IMG/VR virus record: IMGVR_UViG_3300032323_003295
Coordinates: 28,490-92,489 of that record
DNA length: 64,000 bases
Reading direction: 5' to 3' (one strand)
Source: a virus
Taxonomy: Duplodnaviria > Heunggongvirae > Uroviricota > Caudoviricetes
Part shown: positions 3,957 to 60,616 of the stretch, piece by piece
Numbering within the stretch: the first letter of the stretch is position 1
Layout: the number at the start of each line of letters is the position of its first letter
Made by a program: the position numbers and the translations under genes
Notes under the pieces: generated by a model
Databases searched by the model: none
What the model saw: the letters and a program-made list of their open reading frames with translations, nothing else
Told to the model about the DNA's origin: nothing

Positions 3957-4916
3957 ATGATAAAGAAATATTTAGAATTCATTAAAGAAAATAAAGAAGA
4001 CTTCAACTCTATAGGAGAATGGGTAGAATCTTTATATTCAGATGAATATATTAAAAATATAGTTAATAGATTCTTAGGTGAAATAACACCTGATATTAAA
4101 TTATCAAATGCTATTAACCTATTAGATAAAAGAGAACAAGCTGATATAAAGAAACAAATTGAAGATTATCAACAAAATGGTTTACAAGAGCATCCAGAAG
4201 TAAAAGTATCTGCTTCTACAGAAGTTGAAGACCTTTTAGAATCTGAAATCACAATGGCAGGTAAAGGTATATTCAATTCTTTTTTGAAAGCATTAACTGC
4301 TTTAGGACAGAAGAATGGACAACCAACATTAGATAAGTCACCTGATGAGTTTTTGTTGTTCTATCACTATCCAAAATTGATTTCTGATGATGTTAAGATA
4401 GTATTTAGTAGATTCAAATCTTTATCTAAATATGTAGAGATGATTGACTATGCAAAAAATGAAGTTGATTTATACTTTGGTATTAAATGTGATGGTAAGT
4501 TTGAGTATGGTATTTCTTATGAAGAGTCTTTACCTATTGGTCAATTCAAATTATCACAATCTGTTATTAAATGGATTGTTCAATTAGATTTAAAATCTGC
4601 TGCTTCTTTGAAAAAAGAATTAGTTAATTTATCATATCAAGATATTCTTTTATTAGGTAAAATTAAAACTGATATGAAAGATTTTACACCAGGTTATCAC
4701 GAACAAAGGTCAAAACCAACATTAGTTGATAAAGTTTTATCATTTGGTTATTATGGTATTGGTAAATGGGATAATGGTAAATTAGATGAAGGAGAATTAT
4801 TTAATATAAAGGGTAACTTTAGTAACTGGATATTAAGTAAAAAATGGTCTGATAAAGTTTTAATAAGTGTTAAAGCTCAATCATTCTGGTTAAATATACA
4901 TATAAAATTGAAATAA
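3957..4916 (+). CDS. Hypothetical protein with CTS-like N-terminus (MIKKYLEFIKENKEDF)
   Basis: 319-aa ORF. Its N-terminal motif is shared with 29135..29974(-) and others (see findings). Confidence 0.6.
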   Translation: MIKKYLEFIKENKEDFNSIGEWVESLYSDEYIKNIVNRFLGEITPDIKLSNAINLLDKREQADIKKQIEDYQQNGLQEHPEVKVSASTEVEDLLESEITMAGKGIFNSFLKALTALGQKNGQPTLDKSPDEFLLFYHYPKLISDDVKIVFSRFKSLSKYVEMIDYAKNEVDLYFGIKCDGKFEYGISYEESLPIGQFKLSQSVIKWIVQLDLKSAASLKKELVNLSYQDILLLGKIKTDMKDFTPGYHEQRSKPTLVDKVLSFGYYGIGKWDNGKLDEGELFNIKGNFSNWILSKKWSDKVLISVKAQSFWLNIHIKLK

Positions 4917-5389
4917 TGAGAAAGTTTACAGAAAGTTTATCAAATGATATATTTGAAGATGAAGATAAATTAAAGTTTTTATTAACTGAGTTTGGTGATT
5001 ATAATCTTACTTATACAATAAATTATCATTTACAAAGATGTTGGAATTTAGAAGATGAGAGTGGAGATTTATATGCTGTTAGAACATCTGATAAAAGTTT
5101 TGATGATTTATATCAAGAACATGAAGATAGAACTGCAGCAGGTAATATCAAAGATATAAAAGGTTATTATAAAGCTTATATAATAAGATTTAAAGAAACA
5201 TATGCTATATTAACTGCTGACCAACAAAGAACTGGAAGAGCATATGGAATACCTACTTCTAAGACTTATGGGTTTATGGAGGTTGCACAAGATGTTCAAC
5301 ATAAAGTAGAACAATTAGGACACACATTTGCACTTGCTATGAGAGATAGTGAGTTTGATATAATGATATTAGAAGGAAAACATAAATAA
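4916..5389 (+). CDS. Hypothetical protein
   Basis: 157-aa ORF whose start overlaps the upstream stop (ATGA). Confidence 0.5.
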   Translation: MRKFTESLSNDIFEDEDKLKFLLTEFGDYNLTYTINYHLQRCWNLEDESGDLYAVRTSDKSFDDLYQEHEDRTAAGNIKDIKGYYKAYIIRFKETYAILTADQQRTGRAYGIPTSKTYGFMEVAQDVQHKVEQLGHTFALAMRDSEFDIMILEGKHK

Positions 5390-5399
5390 AAATAAAACT

Positions 5400-5786
5400 A
5401 TGAAATACATAAAAACATTTGAAGACATCACTGATGATGAAAACTTTAATCCAGTATTAGGATTTGATGACAAAGATGATACTGAACAAGAAAAATCTAC
5501 ATTTGATTTAGATTTAGCAATCACAAGAGTAAAAGAAGAATTTTCTGATGATGAAGTTGCAACCAGATATGATGATGAGATGATGAACTGGATAGATTCT
5601 GACTGGGAAGAAGATGGTAATTATGATTCTGAATATGATTGGTATATTGACCACAATAATGGAGAAGCACAAGATGTTGTTATTGAAGAAATGATTAAGT
5701 GGTATAAAAGTACTTATGATAAAGATATGAGTGATGATGACTACTCTGATTTATTTGATGAGATAAAGTCAGAATATGGTTTATAA
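5400..5786 (+). CDS. Highly acidic small protein (candidate DNA-mimic / anti-restriction) with MKYIKTFEDI N-terminus
   Basis: 128 aa, very D/E-rich throughout (e.g. DDEMMNWIDSDWEEDGNYDSEYDWYIDHNNGEAQD). A rho-independent terminator follows at 5798-5826. Confidence 0.6.
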   Translation: MKYIKTFEDITDDENFNPVLGFDDKDDTEQEKSTFDLDLAITRVKEEFSDDEVATRYDDEMMNWIDSDWEEDGNYDSEYDWYIDHNNGEAQDVVIEEMIKWYKSTYDKDMSDDDYSDLFDEIKSEYGL

Positions 5787-5828
5787 ACAATTAAAAAGTT
5801 TTCTATATAAATAGAAAACTTTTTTTAT

Positions 5829-7190: not shown

Positions 7191-7460
7191 ATGGATTTAA
7201 AAGAACACTCAATTAGACAATATATGTCTAATATAGATTTCAAAAATGATGATTGGAAAATATCAAAGATATTAGAAGATATGCGTAAATTCTTAGGTGA
7301 AGAACCATCAATTGATGTTGTCTATAAAAAAGATGTTATGATTAATGAAGTAACTGGTATGGCAAAAGAATTTGTTGATGTTGACAAAATTCAAATTGTA
7401 TTTACTGGAACTGATAATAAATTTCATAAATTAGAATTTGTTGTTGGAGAAAAAATATAA
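7191..7460 (+). CDS. Hypothetical protein
   Basis: 89-aa ORF in a co-oriented chain of small genes. Confidence 0.4.
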   Translation: MDLKEHSIRQYMSNIDFKNDDWKISKILEDMRKFLGEEPSIDVVYKKDVMINEVTGMAKEFVDVDKIQIVFTGTDNKFHKLEFVVGEKI

Positions 7461-7692
7461 TTATAAAATGAAGTTAGAAGATTACTATTTAGATCTTGAT
7501 AAAGTATCAACTCTAAAAACAGAAGATGAAAGACAAAATATACATAACTATTACAGAGATATGATGTATGCAGTTTCAGAAAAAAGACATGACCAAGCAG
7601 AATGTATTAAAAATACTTTATTTAAAGCAGGTTACTTGAAAAATGTAACACAAGAAGAAAGACAAGAAAAAATTGAAACTATTTTAGGATAA
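7438..7692 (+). CDS. Hypothetical protein
   Basis: 84-aa ORF that overlaps the previous gene by 23 nt. Confidence 0.4.
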   Translation: MLLEKKYNYKMKLEDYYLDLDKVSTLKTEDERQNIHNYYRDMMYAVSEKRHDQAECIKNTLFKAGYLKNVTQEERQEKIETILG

Positions 7693-7985
7693 TGAAATTT
7701 GATATAATTGAATACTTAGGTAAAATTGAAGATGGTGCATTAGTAATTCTAACTTTAAATTATGAAGATGAATACTATGAAGCTACTTTTTATTATAAAA
7801 ATCAATTTGTAACTTTAACAGTAGATGAGAAACTGGAAGAAATTCTAGGATGTGACATTGAAAAGTGGAAAGGTTATAATAAATTGGTTTTAGAAATAGT
7901 AGAAAGGTTAGTACCTTACAATGAAATTATAAATACTTTAGATGAAATAGATTTAGATTATTACTTTGGTGAAGCAGAAGAATAA
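7692..7985 (+). CDS. Hypothetical acidic protein
   Basis: 97-aa ORF coupled by ATGA. A terminator hairpin follows at 7986-8012. Confidence 0.45.
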   Translation: MKFDIIEYLGKIEDGALVILTLNYEDEYYEATFYYKNQFVTLTVDEKLEEILGCDIEKWKGYNKLVLEIVERLVPYNEIINTLDEIDLDYYFGEAEE

Positions 7986-8012
7986 AAGTCAACTTAGGTT
8001 GACTTTTTTTAT
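7986..8012 (+). terminator. Rho-independent terminator
   Basis: AAGTCAAC-TTAG-GTTGACTT stem followed by a T7 run. Confidence 0.6.
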
Positions 8013-8038
8013 ATAAAAAGAAAAAGTCAAACTAATAA

Positions 8039-9736
8039 ATGTTAATAAGTGAAATAGGAATTAGAGGTTATAAATCTTTTGGAAACAATGAACAAGTATT
8101 AAAATTAAATACAGAAAAAGGAGAATTAGTTCTTCTTGTAGGAAACAATGGTAATGGTAAATCTTCATTACTTGAATCCTTTGAATACTCACTTTATGGA
8201 AAAGTAAAGTCAGGTAAAGCAAAAAAATGGCATAAATTATCTTCCTTGCCAAACAGAATTAATGGTGAATTACTAAATAGAATAAAATTTGTTGCAAATG
8301 GAACAGATGTTGAAATACAAAGAGGTATAGGACCAAGTGTTCTAAACCTGATTGAAAATGGAATACCTAATGAAAGAGCAGGTAAAGCTAACATTGATGA
8401 TAAAATTGAAAAGTATATTGGATTAGATATTGAAACATTCAAATCATTTATATCTATGTCTATCAATGACTTTAAAAACTTTATATCATTAACTAATGAA
8501 GAAAAACAATTATTATTAGATAAGTTATTTAACTTAGAAGTAATCAATATATTAAATGGTATTCTTAAAGATATAAACAAAAACAATAAGATAAGATTAG
8601 CTTCTTTAGATTCAGAGATAAGAACCTTAGAAGATTCTATTGATTCTATTAAAAGGTCTATTGAGAAAGCAATTGAGAAAGAGAAAGAGAATTTACAACA
8701 AGAAATTGACACTCTTACTGATGAAATGAACTCTAAAAAAGATGAGTACAAACTTCTTAAAGAAAAAGTTGATAAGATTAAAGAAAAAGAAACAATTCTT
8801 TCTGATGAGTTGGATATTGAGAAAAGACAATTAAGTTCTACTCAAAATGATATTAGAAATGTACAAAGAGAAATTGACCTTTATGATTCAGGAAAATGTC
8901 CAACTTGTTCAACAGATTTCTTATCAGAACATTTTGTTACATTAAGAAATTCTTTAGTTGAGAAAAAGAATTCTCATGAAGGTATATTAGTTGAGATACA
9001 AAACAATATAGCTTCTATAAGAGCAAAACAGACTAAATTAAAAGAGATTGCAGATGGAACAACCAAATCATTCAATGATTTAAGTTACTTGCTTAAAAAC
9101 TATAAAACACAGATTGATAATTTGAGTAGAAAGAAAGGTTCTCAAGTAAATGAGTCAGTAAATACACAAGAGTTTCAAAATACTATAGATGACTTAGAAG
9201 AGAAAAAATCATTAAGTCATGATGGTGCTACAGTTTGTAAAGAAAAAGAATTATTTTATAAAGAACTTAATAGAGTTTTAAGTGAAGATGGTGCAAAGAA
9301 ATCAATTATTGCAGGTATTATCAAACCTATTAATCACTTTATAGCTGAGAACATTAAGAAAATGGGTTTACCATTTGAGGTTAAATTAGATGAGACATTT
9401 AGTTCAGAGATTAAAAATCTTGGATCTGTTGTAGAACATGATTCATTAAGTACAGGAGAGTCCAAGAAGGTAAACATTGCCATCTTAATTGCTTACTTAA
9501 AATTAATTAGAACTAAAAAACATATCAATATTTTGTTCTTAGATGAAGTATTTTCATCAATTGACATAGAAGGTATAGATTCTATATTATTGCTTCTTAA
9601 ATCATTTGCAAATGACTATAACATCAATATATTTGTTGTTCACCATGCTATTTTGAACCAAGAGATGTTTGATAGAATAATTAAAATAAACAAAGAAGTT
9701 TTTTCTTATATAGAAGAAGTAGAATATGAACATTAA
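8039..9736 (+). CDS. Rad50/SbcC-like recombination ATPase (T4 gp46-like)
   Basis: Walker A LLVGNNGNGKSSLL, a long central coiled coil with a CPTC zinc-hook motif, Walker B LFLDEVFSSID and H-loop VVHH. At 565 aa it is the same size class as T4 gp46. Confidence 0.8.
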   Translation: MLISEIGIRGYKSFGNNEQVLKLNTEKGELVLLVGNNGNGKSSLLESFEYSLYGKVKSGKAKKWHKLSSLPNRINGELLNRIKFVANGTDVEIQRGIGPSVLNLIENGIPNERAGKANIDDKIEKYIGLDIETFKSFISMSINDFKNFISLTNEEKQLLLDKLFNLEVINILNGILKDINKNNKIRLASLDSEIRTLEDSIDSIKRSIEKAIEKEKENLQQEIDTLTDEMNSKKDEYKLLKEKVDKIKEKETILSDELDIEKRQLSSTQNDIRNVQREIDLYDSGKCPTCSTDFLSEHFVTLRNSLVEKKNSHEGILVEIQNNIASIRAKQTKLKEIADGTTKSFNDLSYLLKNYKTQIDNLSRKKGSQVNESVNTQEFQNTIDDLEEKKSLSHDGATVCKEKELFYKELNRVLSEDGAKKSIIAGIIKPINHFIAENIKKMGLPFEVKLDETFSSEIKNLGSVVEHDSLSTGESKKVNIAILIAYLKLIRTKKHINILFLDEVFSSIDIEGIDSILLLLKSFANDYNINIFVVHHAILNQEMFDRIIKINKEVFSYIEEVEYEH

Positions 9737-11583: not shown

Positions 11584-14500
11584 TTATTGTGAATAATCTC
11601 CTGAATAATCTCCTGAATAATCAGGTGGTAATGCAATTGTTGAAAAAGTAAAAAATTGTCCTACTGTTTTTATAACTGGTCCATTAACAATATTACCATT
11701 AACCACTGTAAATGCTTGGGTATCTGCAAATGCCAGAACATAATATGTAGTATTTGGTGTTAATCCTGTTTGATTTGACAACAATACTGGTGGTGTTGTA
11801 GATGATGTAAAAATAGGAGTAATACCTGAGAGATTTGTTAATATATTTGAATCTGAACTCAAATAAAGTCCACTAGAAACATATTGTACATTACCTTGCA
11901 CAGAAACATTACCACTTATAGTTACAGATGATGTTGTTATATTTGTTGGTGGATTAGTTGTTACTACTACTGATGAAGAAGCACTAACTACAACATTAGG
12001 TATACAAATAATAGTATTATCCATTATTGAACTATCAAGACTATCTACACCAATTGTAACATTATCAACAAATATAAAATCAGAGTTTAGATAATCAATA
12101 TTAGGTGCAACACCTTCATAAGGAATTTGTATACCTTTATAAATATTTTCTTCTTCAAAATATTTAAAGAAAGGAATCATATCAGTTTCATATAACTTAA
12201 TATTATCTAATACCAACATAGATTGACTTCCACCCATATTACCATTTCCTTGAATACTCATCATTAAATCAGTCTTATTATAAAAATATTCATATTTCTT
12301 TTTAATAGTATTTGAACCAAATCCAGTATATCTTTCTGCTGATGTTTTTTCAACAGAGTCAAATCTAAATGAATTTTGAACTGATAAGTGATTAATATTT
12401 TGTGTTATTGGTAAATAAGACATTCTTCTATAAACAGGACTAGACTCACCATCTCCAGTAGGTAGTGATCCAATTTCAAAATTAAGATTATTAAAATGTA
12501 AAATTGGTAAGTCAACACTTGGTGTTATTTCAATTCCAACATCTTCTATATATTTCTTATATTTAATAATCAATTCCCATCTATCTAGTATTGGGTAAGT
12601 TGGATTTTCATTTTGAATATAAATAGTCCAATTACCTGATGCATTATTAGTTACTAATTCCTCAATGTTTGTTGAATTAGAAACACCAAATCCTAATGTA
12701 CCTATACCAGTTTGTTTTTCCATAGAGAAAGTTCCAGTATATGGTTGATTACCTGATGAGAGTGGAGTGGTTGATAAAATATCAAATACAGTATTTATTA
12801 ATTGTGTTTCTGTACTTGATAAATTGTCATTTTTCTTTAAACAAATAATTTTATTATCTGGTGATTTCAAATTAATTATAATATTACTTAAATTAGAACC
12901 TTGACAATTTAATGAAATTTTAACAGCAATGCTAATAATGTCTTCTGCTAATAATTCTAGTCCAAAAATACATTCACTTGTTGTTATTGTTTGTGTAACA
13001 ATGTTATTTGGTACTTGTTGATATGATAAGAAGGCTCCACCTACTATTAAATTAGAACCACTTAAAGTCATAGTTCTTACCAAAGAAGTTGATGGGTTAA
13101 GAGTACCATCAGTATAAGTACTTGCTAATGTACCACCATTATTTCTAATTGAAATAACTTTTCCACAAGGGTTATTATTATAACTGGTGAATTCACCACC
13201 TATATATGAGAAACTATAATTAGAACTAAATTCTATATCATATGCAAATGAATTTAGTCCTGTACCAGTATTAAATCCTGTATCAACTGAACCATTAGAA
13301 CTCAACCTTACTATATTTTTACAAGTTCTAAGTGATGAATCTCTATAAGATGTAAAGTTACCAACTACATAAATTCTACTTTGATCATCTACTGCAATTT
13401 TATTAATAAAATTATTTGATGAATTAGGTAGAAATGACTGAAATGTTGGTGTAATAAATCCCTTATTATTAGTTGAAGTAGTATTACTTATAGTAAATGA
13501 AGTATCAACACTAAGTTTATTGGATACTATTTTTAATTTTACTATTCCATTTGTATAATAAATAGCACCACTTGTAATCTTAAATCTGGTTATTTTACCA
13601 CCAACTATAATATTTTCATTATTATCAACTGCTACAGTAGATGGAATATCACTAGTTAACTGAAATGCAAAGTCTGTTGGTGCATCATTATAAATACTTT
13701 TTTCTGAAAAATTACCATTAAAATCAAATAAAATAATTTTGTTTACATATTTTATACCTGTTGTAGAAAAAAACCGAGTAAAATTACCAATTACTACTGA
13801 AAACCACTCTATAGTATTTAAAGTTGATCCAATTTTTCTAAATGCAATATCTGTAATAAATCCATTGAATTGGTATTCTATTGGATCATTATCTGCATCT
13901 TTGTTAAACTTTATTACTCTACCTAATACATTACCTGTACTAGTAGTTACTGGATTAATATAATTTATAATAATAAATATATTATTATCTAATGTAGTAC
14001 CAATGGCAGTTTTTACAACTACTGCTTTGATAAATTCAATATTACTATCAAAAGGTATTGTAGTAGGAAAACCATTATCAAGAGTAAAATTTGTATTTAT
14101 TCTACAAACCATATCTACTGGTAATCCATTATATTCAGTAAAATTACCTGCTACTATAATCTTACCATCTGATTGTCTATCAACAGACCAAACTTCACCA
14201 TTAAATCCATCAAGAAAGTTATTTTCTGGAATCATTGAACTTAGTGAACCAACATCAAATGTAAAGATATTACTTGCAGTAAGTGTACCACTATCAGCTG
14301 AAATATTTGATTGTGTTGCAGGATTTAAAAAAGGACCACTAAGTTCAGTTTCTGAATCATATAACCTTTGATTAGTTTGTGTAAATTTAGAATTGGCAAT
14401 ACTATAAGTAACAACATCAAACTCTACTACACTATATCTTGTTTTTGCTACATTAATTTTATCATTATTTAATATTGCACCTGAGTTGGTTGCAGTTAAA

Positions 14501-27978: not shown

Positions 27979-29088
27979 TTATTTTTTGAATTCTTTTTTG
28001 TCAGATGATATATAAAATTTATCAAAGTCATAATACTTATCATAAACTTCTCTAACTTTTTTAAGTGTTACCTCATCTAAGATGTCATACACAGACCAAC
28101 CTTTTGGATTAATGTATTGATTAACAGAACCATATCTATTAATATCATCTTTTTGTTTTCTAACCATATAGTATTCTTTAACAAGATTAAATCTTTCTTT
28201 AGTTAAATACTTATCAGGATTAGTGATTACTGTCTTAACTGCTTCAACAACTTCATTAAAGTTTTTGTTTGATGTTAATGTTGAGATATTGTTTATACCT
28301 TTATCATTAACTCTTGACTGATAACAATGAACATAATAAACTAATCCTTTTTTCTCTCTAACTTCTTGGTATAAAGGAGATTTTAATCCTAAAGATAACA
28401 TTGCATTAATAAAGTGAACATAAGCAAAGTCTTCTTCAATTACTGGAGATAAAATTGCAATAGATGTTTTGTCTTTAAAGTCATTGTTTAATTCCATTGG
28501 AGTATCATGATTTCCAAAACTAACATCACTTACAATAACTCTTTCTTGAAACTCAATACCTTTATCTTTGAAGTCTTTATGTTTAGAAACATTGATAATT
28601 TTTGTTGGTTTAGCATATTGTAATTCAAAGAAGTTAAGACAATCCATAAATTTAAGTTTCTCTAAATCTTGTCTTGAACCAATTGGTGAATAATCATTAA
28701 ATAATTTTCTTGAAAGGTTTAACATATGAGATTGAGTTTGATCATTAAATGAATCCATATACTCTTCTAATACAATTTTTCTTTCATTCTCAAATTGTTC
28801 TTTAGTAATATTAAAAGTTGTTAATAAATCTACAAATTTTTTTTTCCATTTATTAACTTTTTCATCAAGTCCTGTTAAATAGAAAACAATTTCATTGGAA
28901 GAAGTATAGGCATTCCAATCAATACCATCTTTGTCAAAATCTTCTTGTAAGTGATCAAATGATTTGCATAAAAGGTGTTCCATAAGATGTGAGAGCCCAT
29001 ACCATCCTGGTTTTTCTAAGTTTGTTGAACCCTCATATACTACATAAAATCCACTTAAATCTGTGGGACTTTTTAAATTTATTATCAT
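27979..29088 (-). CDS. M16-family (pitrilysin/insulinase-like) zinc peptidase
   Basis: Inverted zincin motif GLSHLMEHLLCK (HxxEH) near the N-terminus. 369 aa. Confidence 0.7.
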   Translation of the reverse strand: MIINLKSPTDLSGFYVVYEGSTNLEKPGWYGLSHLMEHLLCKSFDHLQEDFDKDGIDWNAYTSSNEIVFYLTGLDEKVNKWKKKFVDLLTTFNITKEQFENERKIVLEEYMDSFNDQTQSHMLNLSRKLFNDYSPIGSRQDLEKLKFMDCLNFFELQYAKPTKIINVSKHKDFKDKGIEFQERVIVSDVSFGNHDTPMELNNDFKDKTSIAILSPVIEEDFAYVHFINAMLSLGLKSPLYQEVREKKGLVYYVHCYQSRVNDKGINNISTLTSNKNFNEVVEAVKTVITNPDKYLTKERFNLVKEYYMVRKQKDDINRYGSVNQYINPKGWSVYDILDEVTLKKVREVYDKYYDFDKFYISSDKKEFKK

Positions 29089-45824: not shown

Positions 45825-47669
45825 ATGATAGATAGAATAGTAGCAAAATTAGAAGAAGCAAATACAGCTTATAGAACTGGTAACTCAATCATGTCTGATA
45901 AAGACTATGATGAAATGGTTGACTTACTTTTTTCATATGACCCTGAGAATGAATTTTTCTCTAAAGTAGGTTTAGAAGTTATTGATGAAACAAGAAAGTC
46001 TAAACTGCCTATTGACATGGCTTCTATGAATAAAATTAAAACTATGGAAGAAATTCATAGTTGGTTAAGATTAAAAGGTATCAATCTTAATACTGAAATT
46101 GTTGCAACTCCTAAGTTTGATGGTCTTTCATTATGTCAAGATGAAATCAATACTGGTACTTTTACAAGAGGTGATGGTATCTATGGTCAAAAATCAGATG
46201 AACACTACAAATTAATCCAAAATCATTTATGTGATAATGGTAGCTTTGCTTATACTTATGGTGAAGTTATTATGCCTAAGAAAACTTTCTTAGAAAAATA
46301 CTCTTTAGATGCAGGAACAGGTGAGTTTGCAAACCCAAGAAACTTAGTTGCTGGATTACTTAACTCAAAAGAAGTAACAGAACCTCTAAGAGATTGTCAA
46401 TATATTAAATATGGTGCAATTTCAAATCCAGGAATTACATTCACTACAAAATCAGAAATACTTGATGTGTTAAATGCTCACCAAAGAGTTGGTGTTAACT
46501 ATCATGTATGTAAAGCAAATGAACTTACAGAAGAACTACTTATTAGTTTATTCCACAATTGGTCTACTGACTATGAAATTGATGGTATAATTCTTGAAGT
46601 AAATAATCTTGACTTACAAGAAAGTTTAGGAAGAGAAACATCTTCTAACAATCCTTGTTATGCAAGAGCATTCAAACATGATTCATTTGAACAAAGAGCT
46701 GAAACTACAATCTTGGCAATTGAAGATAATATCTCAAAACAAGGTTTAGTTAAACCGGTTGCTATCATTGAACCTATTAAATTAGATGGTGTAACTGTTT
46801 CAAGATGTACACTTAATAACTACAAATTTGTTAAAGATAATAGATTAGGAGTTGGTGCAAGAGTTGTAATAAAAAGAAGTGGTATGGTTATCCCTAAGAT
46901 TGTTGAAGTTTTAGAATCTGTTGAGTTTGTTATGCCTACTATTGATGGTGTTGAACTTGGATGGAATGAAGCTGGTATTGAAGTAATCACTTTAACTGAA
47001 ACTGATGAACAAAAAATAAAACAAATAGTTGCTTTCTTTGAAATTTTAGAAGCAGACAATGTTGGTGAAGGTGTTATTACTCAATTATGGGATGCTGGTT
47101 TTCAAACAATTGAATCAGTATTAAAAGCAACTAAAGCTGATTTAGAATCTATTGATAGATTTGGTAAAAGAAAAGCAGCTATTGTTTTTGACTCAATCAG
47201 AAAAGCCACTACAAATGTTGAGTTATCTAAACTACAACATGCTACAGGTTTCTTCAAAGGACTTGGTAGTAAAAAATTAGCTCTTTTAGAGTTTGATGAA
47301 AAGCCTACATTAGAACAAGTTATGTCAATTGAAGGATTTGCTGAAATTTCTGCAAAATCTTATTTGGATAGCTATGATAAATTCTTTACATTTGTTAAAG
47401 GTCTTCCAGTAACAATTGCAGAGAAAGTAGAAGCAGTACAAGTTGGTGATGATTTAGTGGGTACTTCATTTGTATTCACTGGAGTAAGAAGAGCAGACTT
47501 AGAAGAAGTTATCACATCAAGAGGTGGTAAAATTGGTTCATCTGTATCAAAAACTACTACTCACCTTGTAATGAAAGCTAAAGGATCAGGATCAAGTAAA
47601 GAAACAAAAGCAATCAGTTTAGGAGTAACAATTCTTACTATTGCTGAATTAGAAGATATGTTGAAATAA
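45825..47669 (+). CDS. ligA: NAD+-dependent DNA ligase
   Basis: N-terminal Ia domain, adenylation motif VATPKFDGLSL (KxDG), OB, zinc-finger, HhH and C-terminal BRCT-like region. At 614 aa the size is typical for LigA. Confidence 0.9.
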   Translation: MIDRIVAKLEEANTAYRTGNSIMSDKDYDEMVDLLFSYDPENEFFSKVGLEVIDETRKSKLPIDMASMNKIKTMEEIHSWLRLKGINLNTEIVATPKFDGLSLCQDEINTGTFTRGDGIYGQKSDEHYKLIQNHLCDNGSFAYTYGEVIMPKKTFLEKYSLDAGTGEFANPRNLVAGLLNSKEVTEPLRDCQYIKYGAISNPGITFTTKSEILDVLNAHQRVGVNYHVCKANELTEELLISLFHNWSTDYEIDGIILEVNNLDLQESLGRETSSNNPCYARAFKHDSFEQRAETTILAIEDNISKQGLVKPVAIIEPIKLDGVTVSRCTLNNYKFVKDNRLGVGARVVIKRSGMVIPKIVEVLESVEFVMPTIDGVELGWNEAGIEVITLTETDEQKIKQIVAFFEILEADNVGEGVITQLWDAGFQTIESVLKATKADLESIDRFGKRKAAIVFDSIRKATTNVELSKLQHATGFFKGLGSKKLALLEFDEKPTLEQVMSIEGFAEISAKSYLDSYDKFFTFVKGLPVTIAEKVEAVQVGDDLVGTSFVFTGVRRADLEEVITSRGGKIGSSVSKTTTHLVMKAKGSGSSKETKAISLGVTILTIAELEDMLK

Positions 47670-49486: not shown

Positions 49487-50092
49487 ATGGTATCAACAGC
49501 CCCAATGAGTTTGTTCAGTGAACAAGAGAAAATTTTTAAAGAAAGAACAGGTAAAGACTTTTCAACACTTTACCAAAAGTATTACCCAAAATTAATATAC
49601 TTCATATCCAAGATATGTAAGGATGTGCAAAAAGCAGAGGATATTTCTACAGACTCCTTTATAGTTGCACTAGAAAAAATAGACAAGTATGATAAAGACA
49701 AAGCTCAATTCTCAACTTGGTTATTCACAATAGCAAGAAATCTTGCATTACAAGACTTAAAAATAGAAAACAGAAGTATCTCATTAGACATTGAGTTTGA
49801 TGATGAAGGAACTACTTTAAAAGACTTTATACAAGAAACTGAGAGTAATGAAGCAGTTTATGATGTGTATAGTAAAAAAGCAGATGTTTTGAAAAAACAT
49901 ATCTCTGAATTGAAAGAACCTTATAAGACAGTAATTGAAATGAGAGAGATAGACAGAATGGCCTATAAAGATATAGCTGACCTATTAGGTAAGAACTTAT
50001 CTACTATAAAGTCACAAATTAGAAATGGTCGCCATATTCTAATGGAACAATCTAAGAAAGAGTTTTTAGAGATAGATGAAATGTATTTATAG
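49487..50092 (+). CDS. Sigma-70-family RNA polymerase sigma factor (ECF/group-4-like)
   Basis: Region 2 FSTWLFTIARNLALQDLK and region 4 HTH EMREIDRMAYKDIADLLGKNLSTIKSQIRNGRHIL. 201 aa. Confidence 0.75.
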   Translation: MVSTAPMSLFSEQEKIFKERTGKDFSTLYQKYYPKLIYFISKICKDVQKAEDISTDSFIVALEKIDKYDKDKAQFSTWLFTIARNLALQDLKIENRSISLDIEFDDEGTTLKDFIQETESNEAVYDVYSKKADVLKKHISELKEPYKTVIEMREIDRMAYKDIADLLGKNLSTIKSQIRNGRHILMEQSKKEFLEIDEMYL

Positions 50093-52679: not shown

Positions 52680-53552
52680 ATGACACCATCTAAAATAAAA
52701 TTGATTGATTATTTGAAATCAAATTATAATAAAAAATCTAAAGATGAAATAATTAAAGATACAAATCTTTCTTGGAACTATATACAAAAAATTGCTTGTT
52801 TAAATAAAATCAAAAAAGGTTCTAATGAATCAAAAAACAACTCAAAGTATTCAAAAATAATTGATTACAATGATAATATAACTTGTTATTGGATAGGTTT
52901 TATACTTGCAGATGGTCATATATACAAAGAATCCAACATTCAGATAAACTTATCAATAAAAGATAAAGAATATATTTTAAAAATTGAAGAACATATAGGA
53001 AAAGTATGTAAATATGAGTATAAAGATGATATAAGACTTGTAATATCAGATAGAAAAAGTGTGAGTAAATTATCTAATGACTTTAATTGGTTGTCTAATA
53101 AAACCAAGAATCCAGTAAAAATACCTGATAACATAACCAATGACCAACTATTTAGCATGATGATTGGATTTATAGATGGTGATGGATGTATAAATAAAAA
53201 GGGTTTGTTATATCTTAAATGTGATTCTTCATGGGGATATTTTTTAGAAGAAGTATATTATATACTAACATCATCAAAAAAGAATTTTTATATATCACCT
53301 GATGGATGCTCAAATATATGTATAACTAAAAATAAAGAAGTACTTAAAATCAAGAATAGAGCATTGTCTCTAAATTTACCTATAATGAATAGAAAATGGG
53401 ATAGAGTAGTTGATAGAACATTAAAATGTGATAAATATAACATTATACAAAATCTACTTATTGAGGGACATGATATTAAAAAGATAAAAGAAAATACTGG
53501 GTTTAGTCAGTCACTTATTTATAAAGTTAAAAAAGATTTAAAATGGAAGTAG
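52680..53552 (+). CDS. LAGLIDADG-family homing endonuclease (two-motif monomeric type)
   Basis: Two LAGLIDADG motifs: WIGFILADGHIYKE and MIGFIDGDGCINKKG. 290 aa, free-standing between smpB and the next gene. Confidence 0.75.
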   Translation: MTPSKIKLIDYLKSNYNKKSKDEIIKDTNLSWNYIQKIACLNKIKKGSNESKNNSKYSKIIDYNDNITCYWIGFILADGHIYKESNIQINLSIKDKEYILKIEEHIGKVCKYEYKDDIRLVISDRKSVSKLSNDFNWLSNKTKNPVKIPDNITNDQLFSMMIGFIDGDGCINKKGLLYLKCDSSWGYFLEEVYYILTSSKKNFYISPDGCSNICITKNKEVLKIKNRALSLNLPIMNRKWDRVVDRTLKCDKYNIIQNLLIEGHDIKKIKENTGFSQSLIYKVKKDLKWK

Positions 53553-53696
53553 AGTTAAAAACAAAATCATTAAATGAAATATTAAATAAATGTAATTCAT
53601 TAGGGTGGGATATTAAAAAGACAAAATTAGTAAGTAAAATTTTTGAAGATTTATCTGAACCTGATAGTTATTATGTAAAATTATATTTGAAAAATA

Positions 53697-56185: not shown

Positions 56186-56590
56186 ATGAGTTTAAAAGAA
56201 AAAATTAGCAAAGACTACATGACTGCTTTCAAAGAAAGAAATGCAGTAGCAAAAAATTTACTTTCTGTAGTAAAAGGAGAAATCCAAACTATTGAAAAAA
56301 ATACAGGAGTTGATTGTCTTTCTGATGCAGAAGTAATCAAAATCCTTAACAAAACAGCAAAGTCTTTAAATGAGGTTATTGCAACAAGTGGTGATGAAGA
56401 GTCTAAATTACAATTAACTATTGTAGAAGCTTTACTTCCAACTGCATTAACAAGAGAGGATATTGTTGCTAAAGTAAATGAACTTGTAGCATCTGGTGTA
56501 ACAAATGTAGGTGGTATTATGAAAGAGTTTGCAACTTTACAAGTTGACAGAAAAGTAGTATCAGAAGTAATCAAAGAAGTATTAGTTTAA
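56186..56590 (+). CDS. GatB/YqeY-domain protein
   Basis: MSLKEKISKDYMTAFKERNAVAKNLLSVVKGEIQ...ILNKTAKSLNEVIATSGDEE...EALLP parallels the YqeY family (MSLKERL.EDMK.AMKAKDK.RLSTIRML...). 134 aa. Confidence 0.7.
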   Translation: MSLKEKISKDYMTAFKERNAVAKNLLSVVKGEIQTIEKNTGVDCLSDAEVIKILNKTAKSLNEVIATSGDEESKLQLTIVEALLPTALTREDIVAKVNELVASGVTNVGGIMKEFATLQVDRKVVSEVIKEVLV

Positions 56591-57181: not shown

Positions 57182-57465
57182 TATAAGATAAAAATAACAA
57201 ATCAAGAAAAATTAAAAATAAATTAGAAAAAAATTAGGTAGATAAGTAAACTTTTATTACTTTTGTACTATAAAAATAACAAAAAAACAAAAAGAGAGAA
57301 TAAAACTTTAATATATATAATAATGAGAACAAATTTCAAACATACAAGCTTTAGTAAGTCGTTCAAGTGGTTTAGCCACAAGTTCGGATGTATGAGTATG
57401 TCGTTCTCAGATGTAACTTTAATTAGTTAGTTATATTGATAAGAGAATAATAAAACATAAACAGA

Positions 57466-57497
57466 AACCCGAACTTTACAAAAAGTTTGGGTTTTTT
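57466..57497 (+). terminator. Rho-independent terminator
   Basis: AAACCCGAACTTT-ACAAAA-AGTTTGGGTTT (with one G.U pair) followed by a T-run. Confidence 0.6.
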
Positions 57498-57507
57498 CAT
57501 TTTATAA

Positions 57508-57580
57508 TCCCCCTAAACATTGTTGGTGGATGTACCAGACTTTTAATCTGGGAAGGTGGTTTCGATTACCACAGGGGGAA
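57508..57580 (+). tRNA. tRNA-Lys (anticodon TTT)
   Basis: Manual fold: acceptor TCCCCCT/AGGGGGA, D stem ACAT/ATGT, anticodon stem CCAGA/TCTGG with loop CTTTTAA, T arm GTGGT-TTCGATT-ACCAC. 73 nt. Confidence 0.7.
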
Positions 57581-57586
57581 CAAAAT

Positions 57587-57659
57587 ACAGGTCAGCATAA
57601 TGGTATGCACCAGGTCTCCAAAACCTTGGATGGAAAGAGTTCGACTCTCTTGGCTTGTG
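57587..57659 (+). tRNA. tRNA-like, Trp(CCA)-like, degenerate (possible pseudo-tRNA)
   Basis: Canonical T arm AAGAG-TTCGACT-CTCTT and D arm GCAT-AATGGT-ATGC, with anticodon loop CTCCAAA. The acceptor stem needs two G.U pairs and the anticodon stem has a mismatch. It shares GGTCTCCAAAACC with the Trp tRNA at 57825. Confidence 0.35.
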
Positions 57660-57669
57660 CAAATATAAT

Positions 57670-57742
57670 GGACCTTTCGTATAGCTGGTGCGTACGTTGG
57701 ACTGAAAATCCAAAGGACAGGGCTCGATTCCCTGAGGGTCCA
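57670..57742 (+). tRNA. tRNA-Phe (anticodon GAA)
   Basis: Acceptor GGACCTT/AGGGTCC, anticodon stem TTGGA/TCCAA with loop CTGAAAA, T arm CAGGG-CTCGATT-CCCTG. 73 nt. Confidence 0.7.
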
Positions 57743-57744
57743 CT

Positions 57745-57817
57745 TTGATGGTAGCTTAATTGGTTAAAGCACTTGGTTGTGAGCCAAGGGATTGCGGGTT
57801 CAAGTCCCGTCTGTCAA
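57745..57817 (+). tRNA. tRNA-His (anticodon GTG)
   Basis: D arm GCTT-AATTGGTTA-AAGC, anticodon stem CTTGG/CCAAG with loop TTGTGAG, T arm GCGGG-TTCAAGT-CCCGT, acceptor with two G.U pairs. Confidence 0.65.
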
Positions 57818-57824
57818 CCCAAAA

Positions 57825-57898
57825 TACGTCATTGGTGAAATGGTATCATCCTGGTCTCCAAAACCAGTGTTACAGGTTCGAGTCCTGTATGGCGTGCT
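57825..57898 (+). tRNA. tRNA-Trp (anticodon CCA)
   Basis: Acceptor ACGTCAT/ATGGCGT, anticodon stem CTGGT/ACCAG with loop CTCCAAA, T arm ACAGG-TTCGAGT-CCTGT. Confidence 0.75.
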
Positions 57899-57905
57899 GA
57901 TATGG

Positions 57906-57979
57906 TGATTGTCGTCTAAAGGTTAGGATGCCTCCCTGTGAAGGAGGAGATGCGGTCTCGGGATCCGTCTTTCACCCAA
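57906..57979 (+). tRNA. tRNA-like element, His(GTG)-like anticodon arm, non-canonical (probable pseudo-tRNA)
   Basis: Perfect anticodon arm CCTCC-CTGTGAA-GGAGG and a D-arm-like CGTC...GATG. The acceptor pairs at only 5 of 7 positions and the T arm is non-canonical (4-bp stem, 9-nt loop). Confidence 0.3.
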
Positions 57980-57988
57980 ATAATTCTC

Positions 57989-58062
57989 TCCCGTAGCTTA
58001 AATGGAGAAAGCCGCATACTTTTAATATGCAGACTACTGGATCGTACCCAGTCGGGGGAACT
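57989..58062 (+). tRNA. tRNA-Lys-like (second TTT anticodon), unusual T loop
   Basis: Acceptor TCTCCCG/CGGGGGA, D arm GCTT...AAGC, anticodon stem GCATA/TATGC with loop CTTTTAA, T stem ACTGG/CCAGT with atypical loop ATCGTAC. Confidence 0.5.
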
Positions 58063-58135
58063 AATTTACAAGCACTCAACTTTTTAAGGAGAGGGAGTTC
58101 AATTATTTATATATAAAAGAAAAGATAATTGAATT

Positions 58136-58936
58136 ATGAAGGAGTGTAAGTATTGTGGATTTACAACAGAAAATGGATTAAAACTTGGTGGACATATTAC
58201 AAATTGTAAATTAAATCCAAATTATAAAATTAGATGTAGTAAATTAAGTGAAATTGGTAAAAATAGAAAATTATCAGATGAAACTAGAAAAAAAATATCA
58301 AATAGTAGAAAAGAATATTTAAAAAATAATCCTGATAAAGTTCCTTACCTATTAAATCATAGTAGAAATGAATCATATCCTGAGAAATATTTTACTGAGG
58401 TTTTTTTAGATAAAAATATTAATATAACAAAATCCTACAGAATTGGATTGTATGAATTAGACTTTTGTATTTTAGATAAGAAAATAGATATAGAGGTTGA
58501 TGGTAGTCAACACTATTTAGATAATAAAATTATTGAAAGTGATAAAAGAAGAAATAAATATTTAGAAGACTTAGGTTGGGATATAATTAGAATAAAATGG
58601 AGTGAGTATCAATTATTGAACAAGGATTCTAAAAAGTATTTTATTGATAGTTTAATACTTTATATAAATGGATTAGTAGAAAACAAACCAACATTTGAAC
58701 TATTAGATAATAAAAAGTATTGTGAATGTGGTATAGAAATATATAAACGTTCTAAAATGTGTTCTAAATGTGATTCATTTAAACAAAGAAAGGTTGAAAG
58801 ACCTTCATTATACCAACTATTAAAAGATATAAAAGAAACAAACTATGTCTCAACTGGTAAAAAATATGGTGTTAGTGATAACACTATAAGAAAATGGATA
58901 AAGAAATATAATGCGGATTTAGCTGAGACGGTTTAG
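58136..58936 (+). CDS. Homing-endonuclease-like protein: Zn finger + NUMOD3 + DUF559 (PD-(D/E)xK, Vsr-like) nuclease + Zn ribbon + C-terminal HTH
   Basis: N-terminal CKYCGF...GGHITNC. NUMOD3-type GKNRKLSDETRKKISNSRKEY. DUF559 core YRIGLYELDFCILDKKIDIEVDGSQHY...DKRRNKYLEDLGWDIIRIKWSE. CECG...CSKC ribbon. HTH TNYVSTGKKYGVSDNTIRKWIKKY. It sits inside the tRNA array and its last ~24 nt overlap the next tRNA. Confidence 0.7.
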   Translation: MKECKYCGFTTENGLKLGGHITNCKLNPNYKIRCSKLSEIGKNRKLSDETRKKISNSRKEYLKNNPDKVPYLLNHSRNESYPEKYFTEVFLDKNINITKSYRIGLYELDFCILDKKIDIEVDGSQHYLDNKIIESDKRRNKYLEDLGWDIIRIKWSEYQLLNKDSKKYFIDSLILYINGLVENKPTFELLDNKKYCECGIEIYKRSKMCSKCDSFKQRKVERPSLYQLLKDIKETNYVSTGKKYGVSDNTIRKWIKKYNADLAETV

Positions 58937-58984
58937 CGTATGGTTGAAGCCCATAAGAGGTCGGTTCGATTCCGTCAGTCCGCA
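58913..58984 (+). tRNA. tRNA, anticodon GAA (Phe-like; second copy)
   Basis: Acceptor GCGGATT/AGTCCGC, anticodon stem TATGG/CCATA with loop TTGAAGC, T arm GTCGG-TTCGATT-CCGTC (one mismatch). The 5' end overlaps the upstream CDS. Confidence 0.5.
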
Positions 58985-58993
58985 CAAAAAATT

Positions 58994-59085
58994 AGTCTGA
59001 TAATGTAGTGGTAACATTATGTAGTCGATCCAGATTTTTCTGGGGTATCTTCCGCTCATCACAGGTTCGATTCCTGTTCAGACTA
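58994..59085 (+). tRNA. tRNA-like element of aberrant length (92 nt), anticodon undetermined
   Basis: Perfect 7-bp acceptor AGTCTGA/TCAGACT, D arm ATGT-AGTGGTA-ACAT and canonical T arm ACAGG-TTCGATT-CCTGT. About 25 extra nt lie between the D arm and the T arm, including hairpin TCCAGA-TTTT-TCTGGG. No standard 7-nt anticodon loop could be placed. Confidence 0.4.
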
Positions 59086-59289
59086 CTAAAAGTTGTTTTG
59101 TAACAAACAAAACACTACTAAAAATAAATAAAACAAAGAATAAAATTTTAATATATAAGTTATGAAAACAATTATAAGTACTCACATAGTGAGAGTGCAA
59201 AGCACTACATCGTCAAGTTCATCAAGTCGCTCAAGTAAATTGAGGGAGGATCTTGTGTATTCATAATTTTTTTAAGTAAAAGTTATATG

Positions 59290-59322
59290 AAACCCACAAA
59301 CCTCAAAGTTTGTGGGTTTTTT
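59290..59322 (+). terminator. Rho-independent terminator
   Basis: AACCCACAAAC-CTCAAA-GTTTGTGGGTT followed by a T7 run. Confidence 0.7.
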
Positions 59323-59326
59323 TATT

Positions 59327-59399
59327 GGTTCCATCGTTCAATTGGATAGGATAGGTCGCTACGAACGATCAGATATAGGTTCGAATCCTATTGGAATCA
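59327..59399 (+). tRNA. tRNA-Arg (anticodon ACG)
   Basis: Acceptor GGTTCCA/TGGAATC, anticodon stem GGTCG/CGATC with loop CTACGAA, T arm ATAGG-TTCGAAT-CCTAT. Confidence 0.7.
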
Positions 59400-59406
59400 C
59401 AAATAT

Positions 59407-59494
59407 GGAGAGTAACTGGCTGGATGAAGGCCTAGTTTTGAAAACTAGTAACTCGGAGAAATCTGGGTTGTGGGTTCGAGTCCCACACTCTCTT
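59407..59494 (+). tRNA. tRNA-Ser (anticodon TGA), long variable arm
   Basis: Acceptor GGAGAGT/ACTCTCT, anticodon stem CTAGT/ACTAG with loop TTTGAAA, variable-arm hairpin, T arm GTGGG-TTCGAGT-CCCAC. 88 nt. Confidence 0.65.
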
Positions 59495-59499
59495 CAAAA

Positions 59500-59587
59500 G
59501 GAAGGATAAACCAAGTTGGTCTATGGGTCGCAGTCTTGAAAACTGTTGGGGGTAACACCCGTGTGAGTTCAAGTCTCACTTCTTCCG
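59500..59587 (+). tRNA. tRNA-Ser (anticodon TGA, second copy), long variable arm
   Basis: Acceptor GGAAGGA/TTCTTCC (Ser-like), anticodon loop CTTGAAA, variable hairpin GGGGTAACACCC, T arm GTGAG-TTCAAGT-CTCAC. 88 nt. Confidence 0.6.
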
Positions 59588-59592
59588 CAATT

Positions 59593-59678
59593 AGTGAATA
59601 AACCATGATGGTGATTGGGTCTGCCTGGAAAGCAGTACATACGTTTAGATGTATAGAGTTCGATTCTCTTTTTCACTG
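59593..59678 (+). tRNA. tRNA-Ser (anticodon GGA), long variable arm
   Basis: D stem ACC/GGT, anticodon stem CTGC/GCAG with loop CTGGAAA, variable hairpin TACAT-ACGTTTAG-ATGTA, T loop TTCGATT. 86 nt. Confidence 0.6.
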
Positions 59679-59803: not shown

Positions 59804-60616
59804 ATGATAGATAAAGCAATATATTCACTTTGGACAAAACCAATGGATAACTTTCTACTTGGGTTTAATAGTGAGGAAATATTTATAAAATGTTTATCAA
59901 TTTCATTAGAAATGAGTAAGAAGTATTTTACTCATGTTGAATTGGTAACAGATATTAAAGGTAAAGAACTTTTGATTGATAAGTATAAATTACCATTTAC
60001 ATCAGTATCTATTGAATTAGAAGAAGCTCTTAAAAATATTGATTCTAAACATTGGGCTATTGGTAAAATATATGCCTGTAAGATACAGAAAGAACCATTT
60101 ATTCATATTGATAATGATGTAATTTGGTCAAAAAAACCTCATATTGACTTATTAAGTGCAGATGCTTGTTTTCAACAAAGTGAGGTTATGAAAGATGTAG
60201 GATTAGGTCATATACGTCCTTATATTAATCTTGTAAATAATTTTAGATTAGATTCAAAATATATAAATTGGGATTTTAAAGAATCTTATAATTGTGGTAT
60301 AATTGGATTTAATAGATTAGATATATTAGATATTTGGTGGAATGAAGCATTAAAATACATTGAATATATTGACAATTACAATATGGAATATGAGATAACA
60401 TCTTTAATTTTTGAGCAATTTTATATTACTAATTTATGTAATTATTTTAATTACAATGTTAAGTTGATTACTGATTTCTCATCAATAAATAATATTGAGG
60501 ATGCAGCAGGTATATTAGGATATACACATTTTGTATCTGATAGTAAAAAGACTAAAGAGAATGAATTAGTGATTGAGACCGTATATGATCATGTAATGAA
60601 TAAAAGAATAACTTAA
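59804..60616 (+). CDS. Hypothetical protein
   Basis: 270-aa ORF directly downstream of the tRNA array. Confidence 0.5.
   Translation: MIDKAIYSLWTKPMDNFLLGFNSEEIFIKCLSISLEMSKKYFTHVELVTDIKGKELLIDKYKLPFTSVSIELEEALKNIDSKHWAIGKIYACKIQKEPFIHIDNDVIWSKKPHIDLLSADACFQQSEVMKDVGLGHIRPYINLVNNFRLDSKYINWDFKESYNCGIIGFNRLDILDIWWNEALKYIEYIDNYNMEYEITSLIFEQFYITNLCNYFNYNVKLITDFSSINNIEDAAGILGYTHFVSDSKKTKENELVIETVYDHVMNKRIT

Follow-up and report, generated by a model that had tools for sequence, protein, structure and literature searches.

Vsr-like homing endonucleases of the 'EDxHD' type, which carry NUMOD motifs, were described between 2009 and 2011 and include the T-even phage enzyme Hef (Dassa 2009, PMC2677866; Taylor 2011, PMC3239194). 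One of them, I-Bth0305I, dimerises via its nuclease domain to make a double-strand break (PMC3239194). In phage T4, the free-standing homing endonuclease SegB is encoded within the transfer RNA (tRNA) cluster, and experiments have shown that this enzyme recognises the T-arm motif GGTTCRANTCC and cleaves at tRNA 3' ends (PMC2330249). Papers on phage tRNA arrays mention homing genes of the GIY-YIG and HNH classes (PMC8421152, PMC6409571). Herein, we analysed a gene that interrupts a tRNA array in a 64,000-nucleotide (nt) stretch of a Caudoviricetes virus (IMG/VR record IMGVR_UViG_3300032323_003295, positions 28,490 to 92,489), referred to below as the window. Its 266-amino-acid (aa) product has a Vsr/DUF559-type nuclease core flanked by small putative DNA-binding modules. 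We consider it probable that the gene is a homing endonuclease gene of the free-standing kind, in an inter-tRNA spacer of a huge-phage array. An earlier note, made from the window sequence, had called it homing-endonuclease-like, and the empty alleles in relatives, the replacement by an HNH enzyme in one of them and the restriction of the family to tRNA arrays all support that call. The novelty that the note implied for a Vsr/DUF559-type nuclease in a homing enzyme does not stand, since the EDxHD family had already been described (PMC2677866, PMC3239194).

The open reading frame (ORF) starts with ATG, and its coordinates in Table 1 count in the stop codon. On its 5' side lie seven tRNA or tRNA-like genes (57508-58061, ARAGORN and Rfam combined). 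On its 3' side lie tRNA-Phe(GAA), a doubtful 93-nt tRNA-like call (58994-59086) and four more tRNAs (59327-59677). All are co-oriented with the ORF, and the tRNAs found on both sides bear out the description of the gene as dividing one cluster into two arrays. The two programs place the start of tRNA-Phe at 58913 and differ by one base at its end (58985 by ARAGORN, 58984 by Rfam; 56.7 bits against a gathering score of 29). As the ORF ends at 58936, its final eight codons (ADLAETV and TAG) are the first 24 nt of the tRNA, 58913-58936. The stop codon (58934-58936) falls within the D-arm, and the overlap of about 24 nt given in the earlier note is correct to the base.

A scan that used the neighbouring YqeY gene recovered syntenic relatives. 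Uncultured phage records LR745206 and LR756501-4 (634-735 kilobases (kb)) are related to the region, as is the ENA contig L001 (639,601 bp); the window belongs to a huge phage. A nucleotide search of a phage collection with the whole region returned mainly tRNA-only matches, plus huge-phage relatives. We found three states of the site among the relatives: this gene, no gene, or a different endonuclease. First, the site is occupied in the window, in L006, L086 and L087, which encode the identical protein, and in L007/L090 and L001, whose proteins are 78-79% identical; these occupied relatives share the 24-nt run into tRNA-Phe. Second, the site is empty in L088, with flanks about 93% identical to those of the window. 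There, tRNA-X (11964-12036) and tRNA-Phe (12044-12116) are separated by a gap of 7 nt and no homologue is present. The tRNA-X 3' end (CACCCAAA) is common to the window and this empty allele, and L002 (LR745206.1) and L094 are also empty. Finally, the same spacer in L089 holds a 282-aa HNH endonuclease gene (phrog_10822, E 7e-43) that also ends ...NADLAETV* inside tRNA-Phe. Comparison of L089 with L090 gave 93% nucleotide homology from the start of the ribbon/helix-turn-helix (HTH) region through tRNA-Phe and none over the nuclease domains, and the tRNA-X 3' end is shared by L089 and L088.

In the junction alignments, empty and occupied alleles are homologous again from position -1 of tRNA-Phe onwards. 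This sets the right edge of the insertion at the tRNA 5' end, and the endonuclease ORF simply runs on to the first in-frame stop in tRNA-Phe. These junctions bear on whether the gene could belong to a transposable element with tRNA genes as its target, either an insertion sequence or another transposon, and encode its transposase or nuclease. The C-terminal HTH does have weak HTH_Tnp_1 and IS481-like matches. However, the junctions fall exactly on tRNA gene ends, there is no transposase catalytic domain, and we found no terminal inverted repeats or target-site duplications flanking 57983-58912. We rejected this explanation on the lack of such repeats and duplications and give it a negligible probability.

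Relative to L088, the window has the tRNA-Lys-like gene (57987-58061), the 74-nt leader and the endonuclease gene as extra DNA. The tRNA-Lys-like gene has no counterpart between X and Phe in L088 and is present in two copies in L006. It belongs to the extra DNA and may therefore have come as tRNA cargo. The order of the tRNAs differs even among relatives with about 90% identical flanks; Trp and Lys genes precede tRNA-Phe in the window and follow it in L088. Between the window and L006, a block at 57748-58985 that ends at the tRNA-Phe 3' end is 99-100% identical, and several neighbouring stretches are 77-94% identical.

The distribution of the family was examined in wider collections. The protein has at least 857 homologues, and a profile search of 1.84 billion representatives gave 441 clusters (50% identity) at E<=1e-30. 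For a locus survey, 80 IMG/VR loci and 8 contigs of metagenome-assembled genomes (MAGs) were reduced to 65 clusters at 90% identity. A tRNA lay within 2.5 kb at 64 of these 65 non-redundant loci, at least three tRNAs at 59 of them, and 468 of the 506 nearby tRNAs (92%) were on the strand of the gene. The median distance was 69 nt to the upstream tRNA and 10 nt to the downstream one. The downstream tRNA lay within 25 nt at 26 of 48 loci and overlapped the gene at 12, and several 10-nt overlaps take the conserved U8-A9-G10 of the tRNA as a TAG stop. In L003 (LR756501.1), a 735-kb phage, the family member (4914-5789) overlaps the next tRNA by 10 nt.

As a control, bacterial and archaeal genome contigs were scanned. 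All eight strong family matches, each in a MAG contig, were near tRNAs, and none of the 72 weaker DUF559 matches had a tRNA within 2.5 kb; 69 of these 72 comprised the nuclease core only and did not reach the zinc-finger/NUMOD3 region. The same 0/72 count in bacterial genome contigs rules out the idea that all DUF559 genes favour tRNAs. The endonuclease family is restricted almost wholly to phage tRNA arrays. We found no description of a Vsr/DUF559 homing lineage tied to tRNA arrays in open-access papers and preprints, of which our coverage was incomplete. Nearest relatives share the type of the downstream tRNA in 10 of 21 cases (permutation p ~0.0015), a figure confounded by phage relatedness. 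Agreement occurs mostly at 60-81% identity, and nearest relatives at about 50% usually differ (Trp, Lys, Ile). Given this confounding and the disagreement at about 50%, inferring the target from the downstream tRNA type was rejected; it gives no site.

Members in cultured phages also reside in tRNA arrays: Rhizobium phage TM61, Klebsiella phage Lion_ER11 (where the gene overlaps tRNA-Arg by 15 nt), Acinetobacter phage AB-Navy97, Leptolyngbya phage Lbo-JY46, Lak-A1 and T4-like coliphages. In coliphage F2 (L004, MN864145.1), the member at 2258-2929 lies between tRNA-Met and tRNA-Arg and overlaps the latter by 15 nt. The F2 cassette (tRNA-Asn, endonuclease and a divergent tRNA-Arg) stands in place of the 3-nt Met-Arg spacer and resident tRNA-Arg of MM02. 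The F2 member is unannotated in GenBank, and related records say 'hypothetical protein'; in phage vB_VIPECOMC06, a gene at the same site is annotated 'homing endonuclease'. Several relatives of the window protein are already labelled 'homing endonuclease protein' in GenBank phage records.

We next consider the nuclease itself. In a Foldseek search against the PDB, the best match of the core among solved nuclease domains was the catalytic domain of I-Bth0305I (3r3p_A; E 4.7e-4, template modelling (TM) score 0.75, 23% identity). Other matches were E. coli Vsr (1cw0, 1vsr), the DUF559 protein 3hrl (TM 0.73) and mitoribosomal proteins with a RAP domain. By sequence, 3r3p was the best PDB match of the family profile (E 0.0019, 21 bits), and a search with the single sequence did not recover it at E up to 10. 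The earlier note had proposed a PD-(D/E)xK nuclease of the Vsr/DUF559 type, and the Foldseek matches uphold that fold. The note had also held that homing would be refuted if searches revealed no nuclease fold or if relatives offered no empty allele; the searches gave both the fold and a Pfam nuclease core, and L088, L002 and L094 are empty.

The candidate residues for catalysis are E83 (SYPE), D109 (LDF), D122 and H126 (EVDGSQH) and D136. None of E83, D109, E120, D122 and H126 varies among 36 relatives, and D136 hardly does. Profile alignment to 3r3p placed D109 on D196, D122 on N208 and D136 on D222, with H126 one residue before H213; the D196A and H213A substitutions of the crystal construct were allowed for. 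Together with E83, the aligned residues make up the composite 'EDxHD' pattern of Taylor et al. (PMC3239194). In the F2 member, the equivalent of D122 is N (EVNG), as in I-Bth0305I.

The window protein thus resembles I-Bth0305I and the EDxHD enzymes in its Vsr-like fold, its equivalent acidic and His residues, its fused NUMOD-type motifs and the existence of free-standing phage forms. However, Pfam places it in DUF559/MTES_1575, and its His follows the 'x' position by four residues, as in DUF559, whereas the spacing in EDxHD enzymes is five. The domain order differs because the nuclease is central, with the finger and NUMOD3 N-terminal and the ribbon and HTH C-terminal, whereas the nuclease of I-Bth0305I is C-terminal and preceded by two NUMOD2 motifs at the N-terminus. 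The EDxHD members known so far are found in introns, at split-intein loci or between nrd genes, and not in a tRNA array. Compared with the EDxHD family, the protein therefore agrees in fold, catalytic residues, NUMOD motifs and sporadic distribution and is marginal in sequence. It is plausible, by analogy with I-Bth0305I, that the window enzyme also dimerises for double-strand cleavage.

With bacterial DUF559 proteins and Vsr, the window protein shares the core fold and the catalytic motif PE...D...E-x-D-G-x-Q-H...D; generic DUF559 genes differ in their location, away from tRNAs. The Vsr-like fold, and the name 'very-short-patch-repair endonuclease' that the Joint Genome Institute (JGI) gives to many homologues, would suit an enzyme of very-short-patch (T:G mismatch) repair. 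Yet there was no Vsr model among the Pfam and NCBIfam matches at E up to 10, and the extra DNA-binding modules, the tRNA-array location and the sporadic distribution do not agree with a repair role. Moreover, Dassa et al. reported that mismatch-recognition residues are missing from Vsr-like homing enzymes (PMC2677866), a trait that the window protein may share. We regard such a repair function as extremely unlikely.

The Pfam results raised a further explanation, that the protein is a RAP-like RNA nuclease or RNA binder that aids the processing of the polycistronic tRNA precursor around the gene. Three Pfam models match above their cut-offs within residues 92-171: REase_MTES_1575 (PF18741; 41.4 bits against 38.2), DUF559 (PF04480; 36.5 against 20.6) and RAP (PF08373; 35.4 against 24.2), the last over the nuclease core that DUF559 also covers. 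The best fold matches include RAP-domain proteins of organellar ribosomes, the family is linked almost exclusively to tRNA arrays, and the gene is probably co-transcribed with the tRNAs. Nevertheless, close relatives have equivalent arrays without the gene, an HNH DNA endonuclease swaps in at the same site, the NUMOD3, zinc-finger and HTH modules are typical of DNA-binding homing enzymes, and the active-site residues agree with DNA nucleases. A role in RNA processing is therefore very unlikely. All 36 relatives match both the DUF559 and the REase_MTES_1575 models.

A more serious alternative is that the gene encodes a nuclease by which one phage excludes another, or that it is a former homing gene in decay; in either case it cuts or once cut the arrays of rivals but no longer homes, its distribution being the outcome of descent and loss. 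This would fit the fact that several related lineages (L001, L007/L090 and the window) have the gene at one and the same site. The shuffled arrays suggest local decay, as does the linked tRNA-Phe at 58913, whose T-stem has a T.T mismatch that relatives do not have. Against it, the ratio of nonsynonymous to synonymous substitution rates (dN/dS) between the window and L090/L001 (79% identical) is 0.33-0.36, and that between L090 and L001 is 0.08. The window gene differs from that of L006/L087 by four synonymous differences only. The dN/dS values and the homologues argue that the ORF is real and under purifying selection. In addition, contigs with flanks of 77-94% identity encode the identical protein, the catalytic residues show little or no variation, and among near-identical coliphages the F2 gene occurs sporadically (in 11 of 236 related records). 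Homing and exclusion can, moreover, coexist. We consider loss of homing in favour of exclusion or decay unlikely, and we favour a homing endonuclease gene.

How such a gene would spread can be outlined as follows. During co-infection, the enzyme would cut the array of a rival phage at or near an intact tRNA-tRNA junction. Repair off the carrier genome would then give the rival a copy of the gene, and adjacent tRNA genes would come along as cargo. The carrier itself would be protected, as the insertion splits the target.

Several points weigh against this interpretation. First, the left flank of the window is not colinear with the empty allele, owing to the extra tRNA-Lys and the shuffled tRNA order, and the clean two-sided junction stems from the HNH allele L089 and not from the endonuclease gene of the window. 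Second, the first 28 nt of tRNA-Phe are identical in empty and occupied alleles, so self-immunity cannot rest on the tRNA-Phe half-site alone. Third, a second block shared by the window and L006 (55600-56500) is also about 100% identical; the block at 57748-58985 is therefore not unique and is weak evidence for co-conversion. In addition, the sequence link to I-Bth0305I as the characterised EDxHD enzyme is marginal (E 0.0019), cleavage by the tRNA-array lineage is for all its members a prediction from sequence and model, and such genes might persist in tRNA arrays simply because these tolerate them.

The modules around the nuclease are listed in Table 1. Three of them scored below the Pfam cut-offs in this protein: NUMOD3 (aa 43-59; 18.5 bits against 20.4), HTH_28 (aa 235-260; 20.5 against 25) and I-TevI_ZnF (aa 194-212; 13.6 against 27). 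Among the 36 relatives, NUMOD3 was found in 14 (best E 3.7e-5), HTH_28 in 12, HTH_23 in 10 and zf-C2H2_6 in 3. Of the two Pfam domains named in the earlier note, DUF559 is thus clear, and NUMOD3 is below the cut-off here and recognised in relatives. In the family alignment, S55 of the NUMOD3 region is invariant and E49, K53, I54 and R58 are nearly so, as are C198, C209 and C212 of the ribbon. The AlphaFold model (mean predicted local distance difference test score (pLDDT) 87.6) has a beta-beta-alpha finger (1-23), a long helix, an alpha/beta core, a ribbon (194-215) and three helices (225-265). The sub-threshold NUMOD3, HTH and zinc domains are supported by the matches of relatives, the conserved Cys residues and this model, in agreement with the N-terminal finger, second zinc ribbon and C-terminal HTH first proposed. 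The consensus of the central block is S-x-E-T-K-K-K-I-S...N-P-D-K-V-P-Y-L-L-N-H...S-Y-P-E-K-Y-F...Y-E-L-D-F...I-E-I-D-G-S-Q-H...S-D-K-R-R. Both ends of the protein are modular in relatives, with between one and three zinc fingers, or a helical module unrelated to them, at the N-terminus and one or two Cys4 ribbons plus one to three HTH copies at the C-terminus.

Table 1. The insertion site in the tRNA array of the window and the parts of the endonuclease gene.
Feature	Coordinates	Strand	Evidence and remarks
tRNA 'X', left flank of insertion site	57905..57976	+	Rfam tRNA 34.3 bits; not called by ARAGORN
tRNA-Lys(UUU)-like gene, atypical T-loop	57987..58061	+	ARAGORN only; below Rfam gathering score
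Endonuclease leader, 74 nt	58062..58135	+	Ends with 13-bp hairpin before ATG
Homing-endonuclease-like gene, free-standing, 266 aa	58136..58936	+	ORF, Pfam, alignment, AlphaFold model, Foldseek, dN/dS
CCHC zinc finger, N-terminal (C5, C8, H21, C25)	58136..58216	+	Sequence reading; AlphaFold beta-beta-alpha, pLDDT >90
NUMOD3-type DNA-binding helix, aa 43-59	58262..58312	+	Pfam E 0.002, 18.5 bits, below cut-off of 20.4
Vsr/DUF559-type PD-(D/E)xK nuclease core, aa 80-177	58373..58666	+	Pfam, Foldseek, family profile, alignment
Cys4 zinc ribbon (C196, C198, C209, C212)	58715..58780	+	Conserved Cys; I-TevI_ZnF weak, E 0.065; AlphaFold short strands 194-202
C-terminal HTH, aa 225-265	58808..58930	+	HTH_28 E 5e-4
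tRNA-Phe(GAA), right flank of insertion	58913..58985	+	ARAGORN; Rfam 56.7 bits

The same small modules (zinc finger, NUMOD3 helix and HTH) are strung along the DNA-binding domain of I-TevI, and this string of modules implies a long, loosely read DNA site. The likeness is limited in that the matches are weak (I-TevI_ZnF E 0.065, NUMOD3 just under its cut-off) and the modules stand on both sides of the nuclease. By tblastn, residues 194-263 (ribbon and HTH) were also found in HNH endonuclease genes next to tRNAs in phiKZ, Bacillus and Enterococcus phages. The carriers phiKZ gp296, Bacillus phage Chewbecca gp228 and Enterococcus phage Bop hegA are 41-53% identical over this part, and 55 of 58 HNH-type carriers in IMG/VR lie within 2.5 kb of a tRNA. 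These enzymes occupy the same niche with a homologous ribbon and HTH, but their catalytic domain is HNH and not Vsr-like. The homing genes of the T5 tRNA regions, F-TflI/II/IV, likewise encode HNH enzymes; their link to the ribbon/HTH module comes solely from the 'F-TflIV' annotation of Bop hegA.

The closest parallel in placement is T4 SegB, as the earlier note had pointed out. Like segB, the window gene is free-standing in a phage tRNA cluster, is oriented with the tRNAs and probably co-transcribed with them, has a hairpin at its start and overlaps the next tRNA with its end; close relatives are without the gene, and neighbouring tRNA genes travel along. The segB paper reports co-transcription with the tRNAs and a cut during tRNA-Arg maturation that parts the stop codon of segB from the sense codon before it (PMC2330249), and the end of the window ORF over tRNA-Phe forms a parallel to this cut. 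Unlike the GIY-YIG enzyme SegB, the nuclease is of the Vsr-like PD-(D/E)xK type. Pfam and profile searches gave no match to a GIY-YIG domain in the window protein, which would function like SegB without being a member of its family. SegB recognition and cleavage are experimental results, whereas the window enzyme is known from sequence; the gene is a Vsr-type analogue of SegB whose cleavage is predicted.

We also looked for signals of expression. The 13-bp leader hairpin (58096-58108 paired with 58123-58135) ends on the base directly before the ATG and has a predicted energy of -12.1 kcal/mol (z = -2.8; z = -3.2 in a larger context). Similar hairpins occur in five other leaders; those of L089, L003 and F2 touch or take in the start codon (z -2.9 to -3.2) and those of L090 and L001 are weaker, so that z is -2.8 or below in four of six leaders. 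The terminator scan gave no terminator-like site between the upstream tRNAs and the ORF; the gene is therefore probably transcribed within the tRNA precursor. A scan for sigma-70 promoters found 12 sites against 13.4 in shuffled sequence, and no promoter is therefore called. Terminator-like hairpins with T-tracts lie at 57463-57496 and 59289-59320, directly before the sub-arrays that begin at 57508 and 59327, and are alike in sequence (GAAACCC...GGGTTTTT). The start-codon hairpin may keep endonuclease output low, and RNase P maturation of the tRNA-Phe 5' end would remove the last eight codons, including the stop, from the endonuclease message. Both ideas, the start hairpin and the removal of the stop codon, were put forward earlier for segB (PMC2330249), and start-site hairpins have also been noted for Vsr-like homing genes (PMC2677866).

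The array itself shows other irregularities. ARAGORN and Rfam disagree on five array genes: 57508-57581, 57587-57660 and 57987-58061 are called by ARAGORN only, and 57905-57976 and 59594-59677 by Rfam only. The T-loop of the tRNA-Lys-like gene is ATCGTAC (usual TTCRANT). The array (57508-59677) holds duplicate isoacceptors, two each of Lys-UUU, Trp-CCA, Phe-GAA and Ser-UGA. The 93-nt call at 58994-59086, 'tRNA-Leu(CAG)', was made by ARAGORN and not by Rfam, and its homologue in L086 was called with a four-base anticodon. At its position, L001 has a 389-aa ORF (7332-8501) with no Pfam or PHROG match, and the contig of a 99%-identical protein (P0001) has a 395-aa ORF; a second indel thus lies directly after tRNA-Phe. 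In the L003 array, one of the ORFs at 2452-3285 and 3641-4354 matches a C2H2 zinc finger and a phage endonuclease I-like domain, both weakly, and the other is a 237-aa fragment of a class I (Trp/Tyr) aminoacyl-tRNA synthetase (E 1.6e-35).

No paralogue of the endonuclease was found within the window. A 290-aa ORF at 52680-53552 (+) matches LAGLIDADG_3 (Pfam, 27.2 bits against 22.5) and phrog_4645 (E 1e-14) and is a probable second homing gene about 5 kb upstream of the tRNA array; an indel relative to L006 and L088 lies just 3' of it (~53544-53665). Among the neighbouring genes, those at 45825-47669, 49487-50092, 56186-56590 and 59804-60616 encode an NAD-dependent DNA ligase, a sigma-70-type factor and, bordering the array, a YqeY-like protein (just upstream) and a DUF6734 protein (just downstream). 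L001 has a tyrosyl-tRNA synthetase-like gene between YqeY and the array that is not at that position in the window.

The window gene is otherwise an ordinary selfish element, and its annotation should read Vsr-like homing endonuclease and not repair enzyme. Vsr-like homing enzymes were already known, as were homing genes in tRNA clusters (T4 SegB, T5 F-Tfl). What is worth pursuing lies at the level of the family: its near-exclusive residence in arrays, the exchange of nuclease domains at one site and the tRNA cargo. Phage tRNA arrays differ strikingly between close relatives, and the cause is poorly understood. We tentatively propose, as a possibility that we ourselves rate as more doubtful than probable, that the Vsr-type lineage and the HNH enzymes that share its C-terminal ribbon/HTH module read a generic tRNA-tRNA junction, carry adjacent tRNA cargo by repeated break and repair, and are a main engine that builds, shuffles and spreads phage arrays and not just passengers of them. 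In the same proposal, enzyme dosage would be set by the RNA processing of the array, because tRNA 5' maturation removes the stop codon. Together, the array residence, the position of the genes against tRNA 5' ends, the nuclease swaps and the extra or replacement tRNA genes make homing enzymes a plausible general cause of array turnover, beyond the lone case of T4 SegB, and the members in cultured T4-like coliphages make this idea directly testable.

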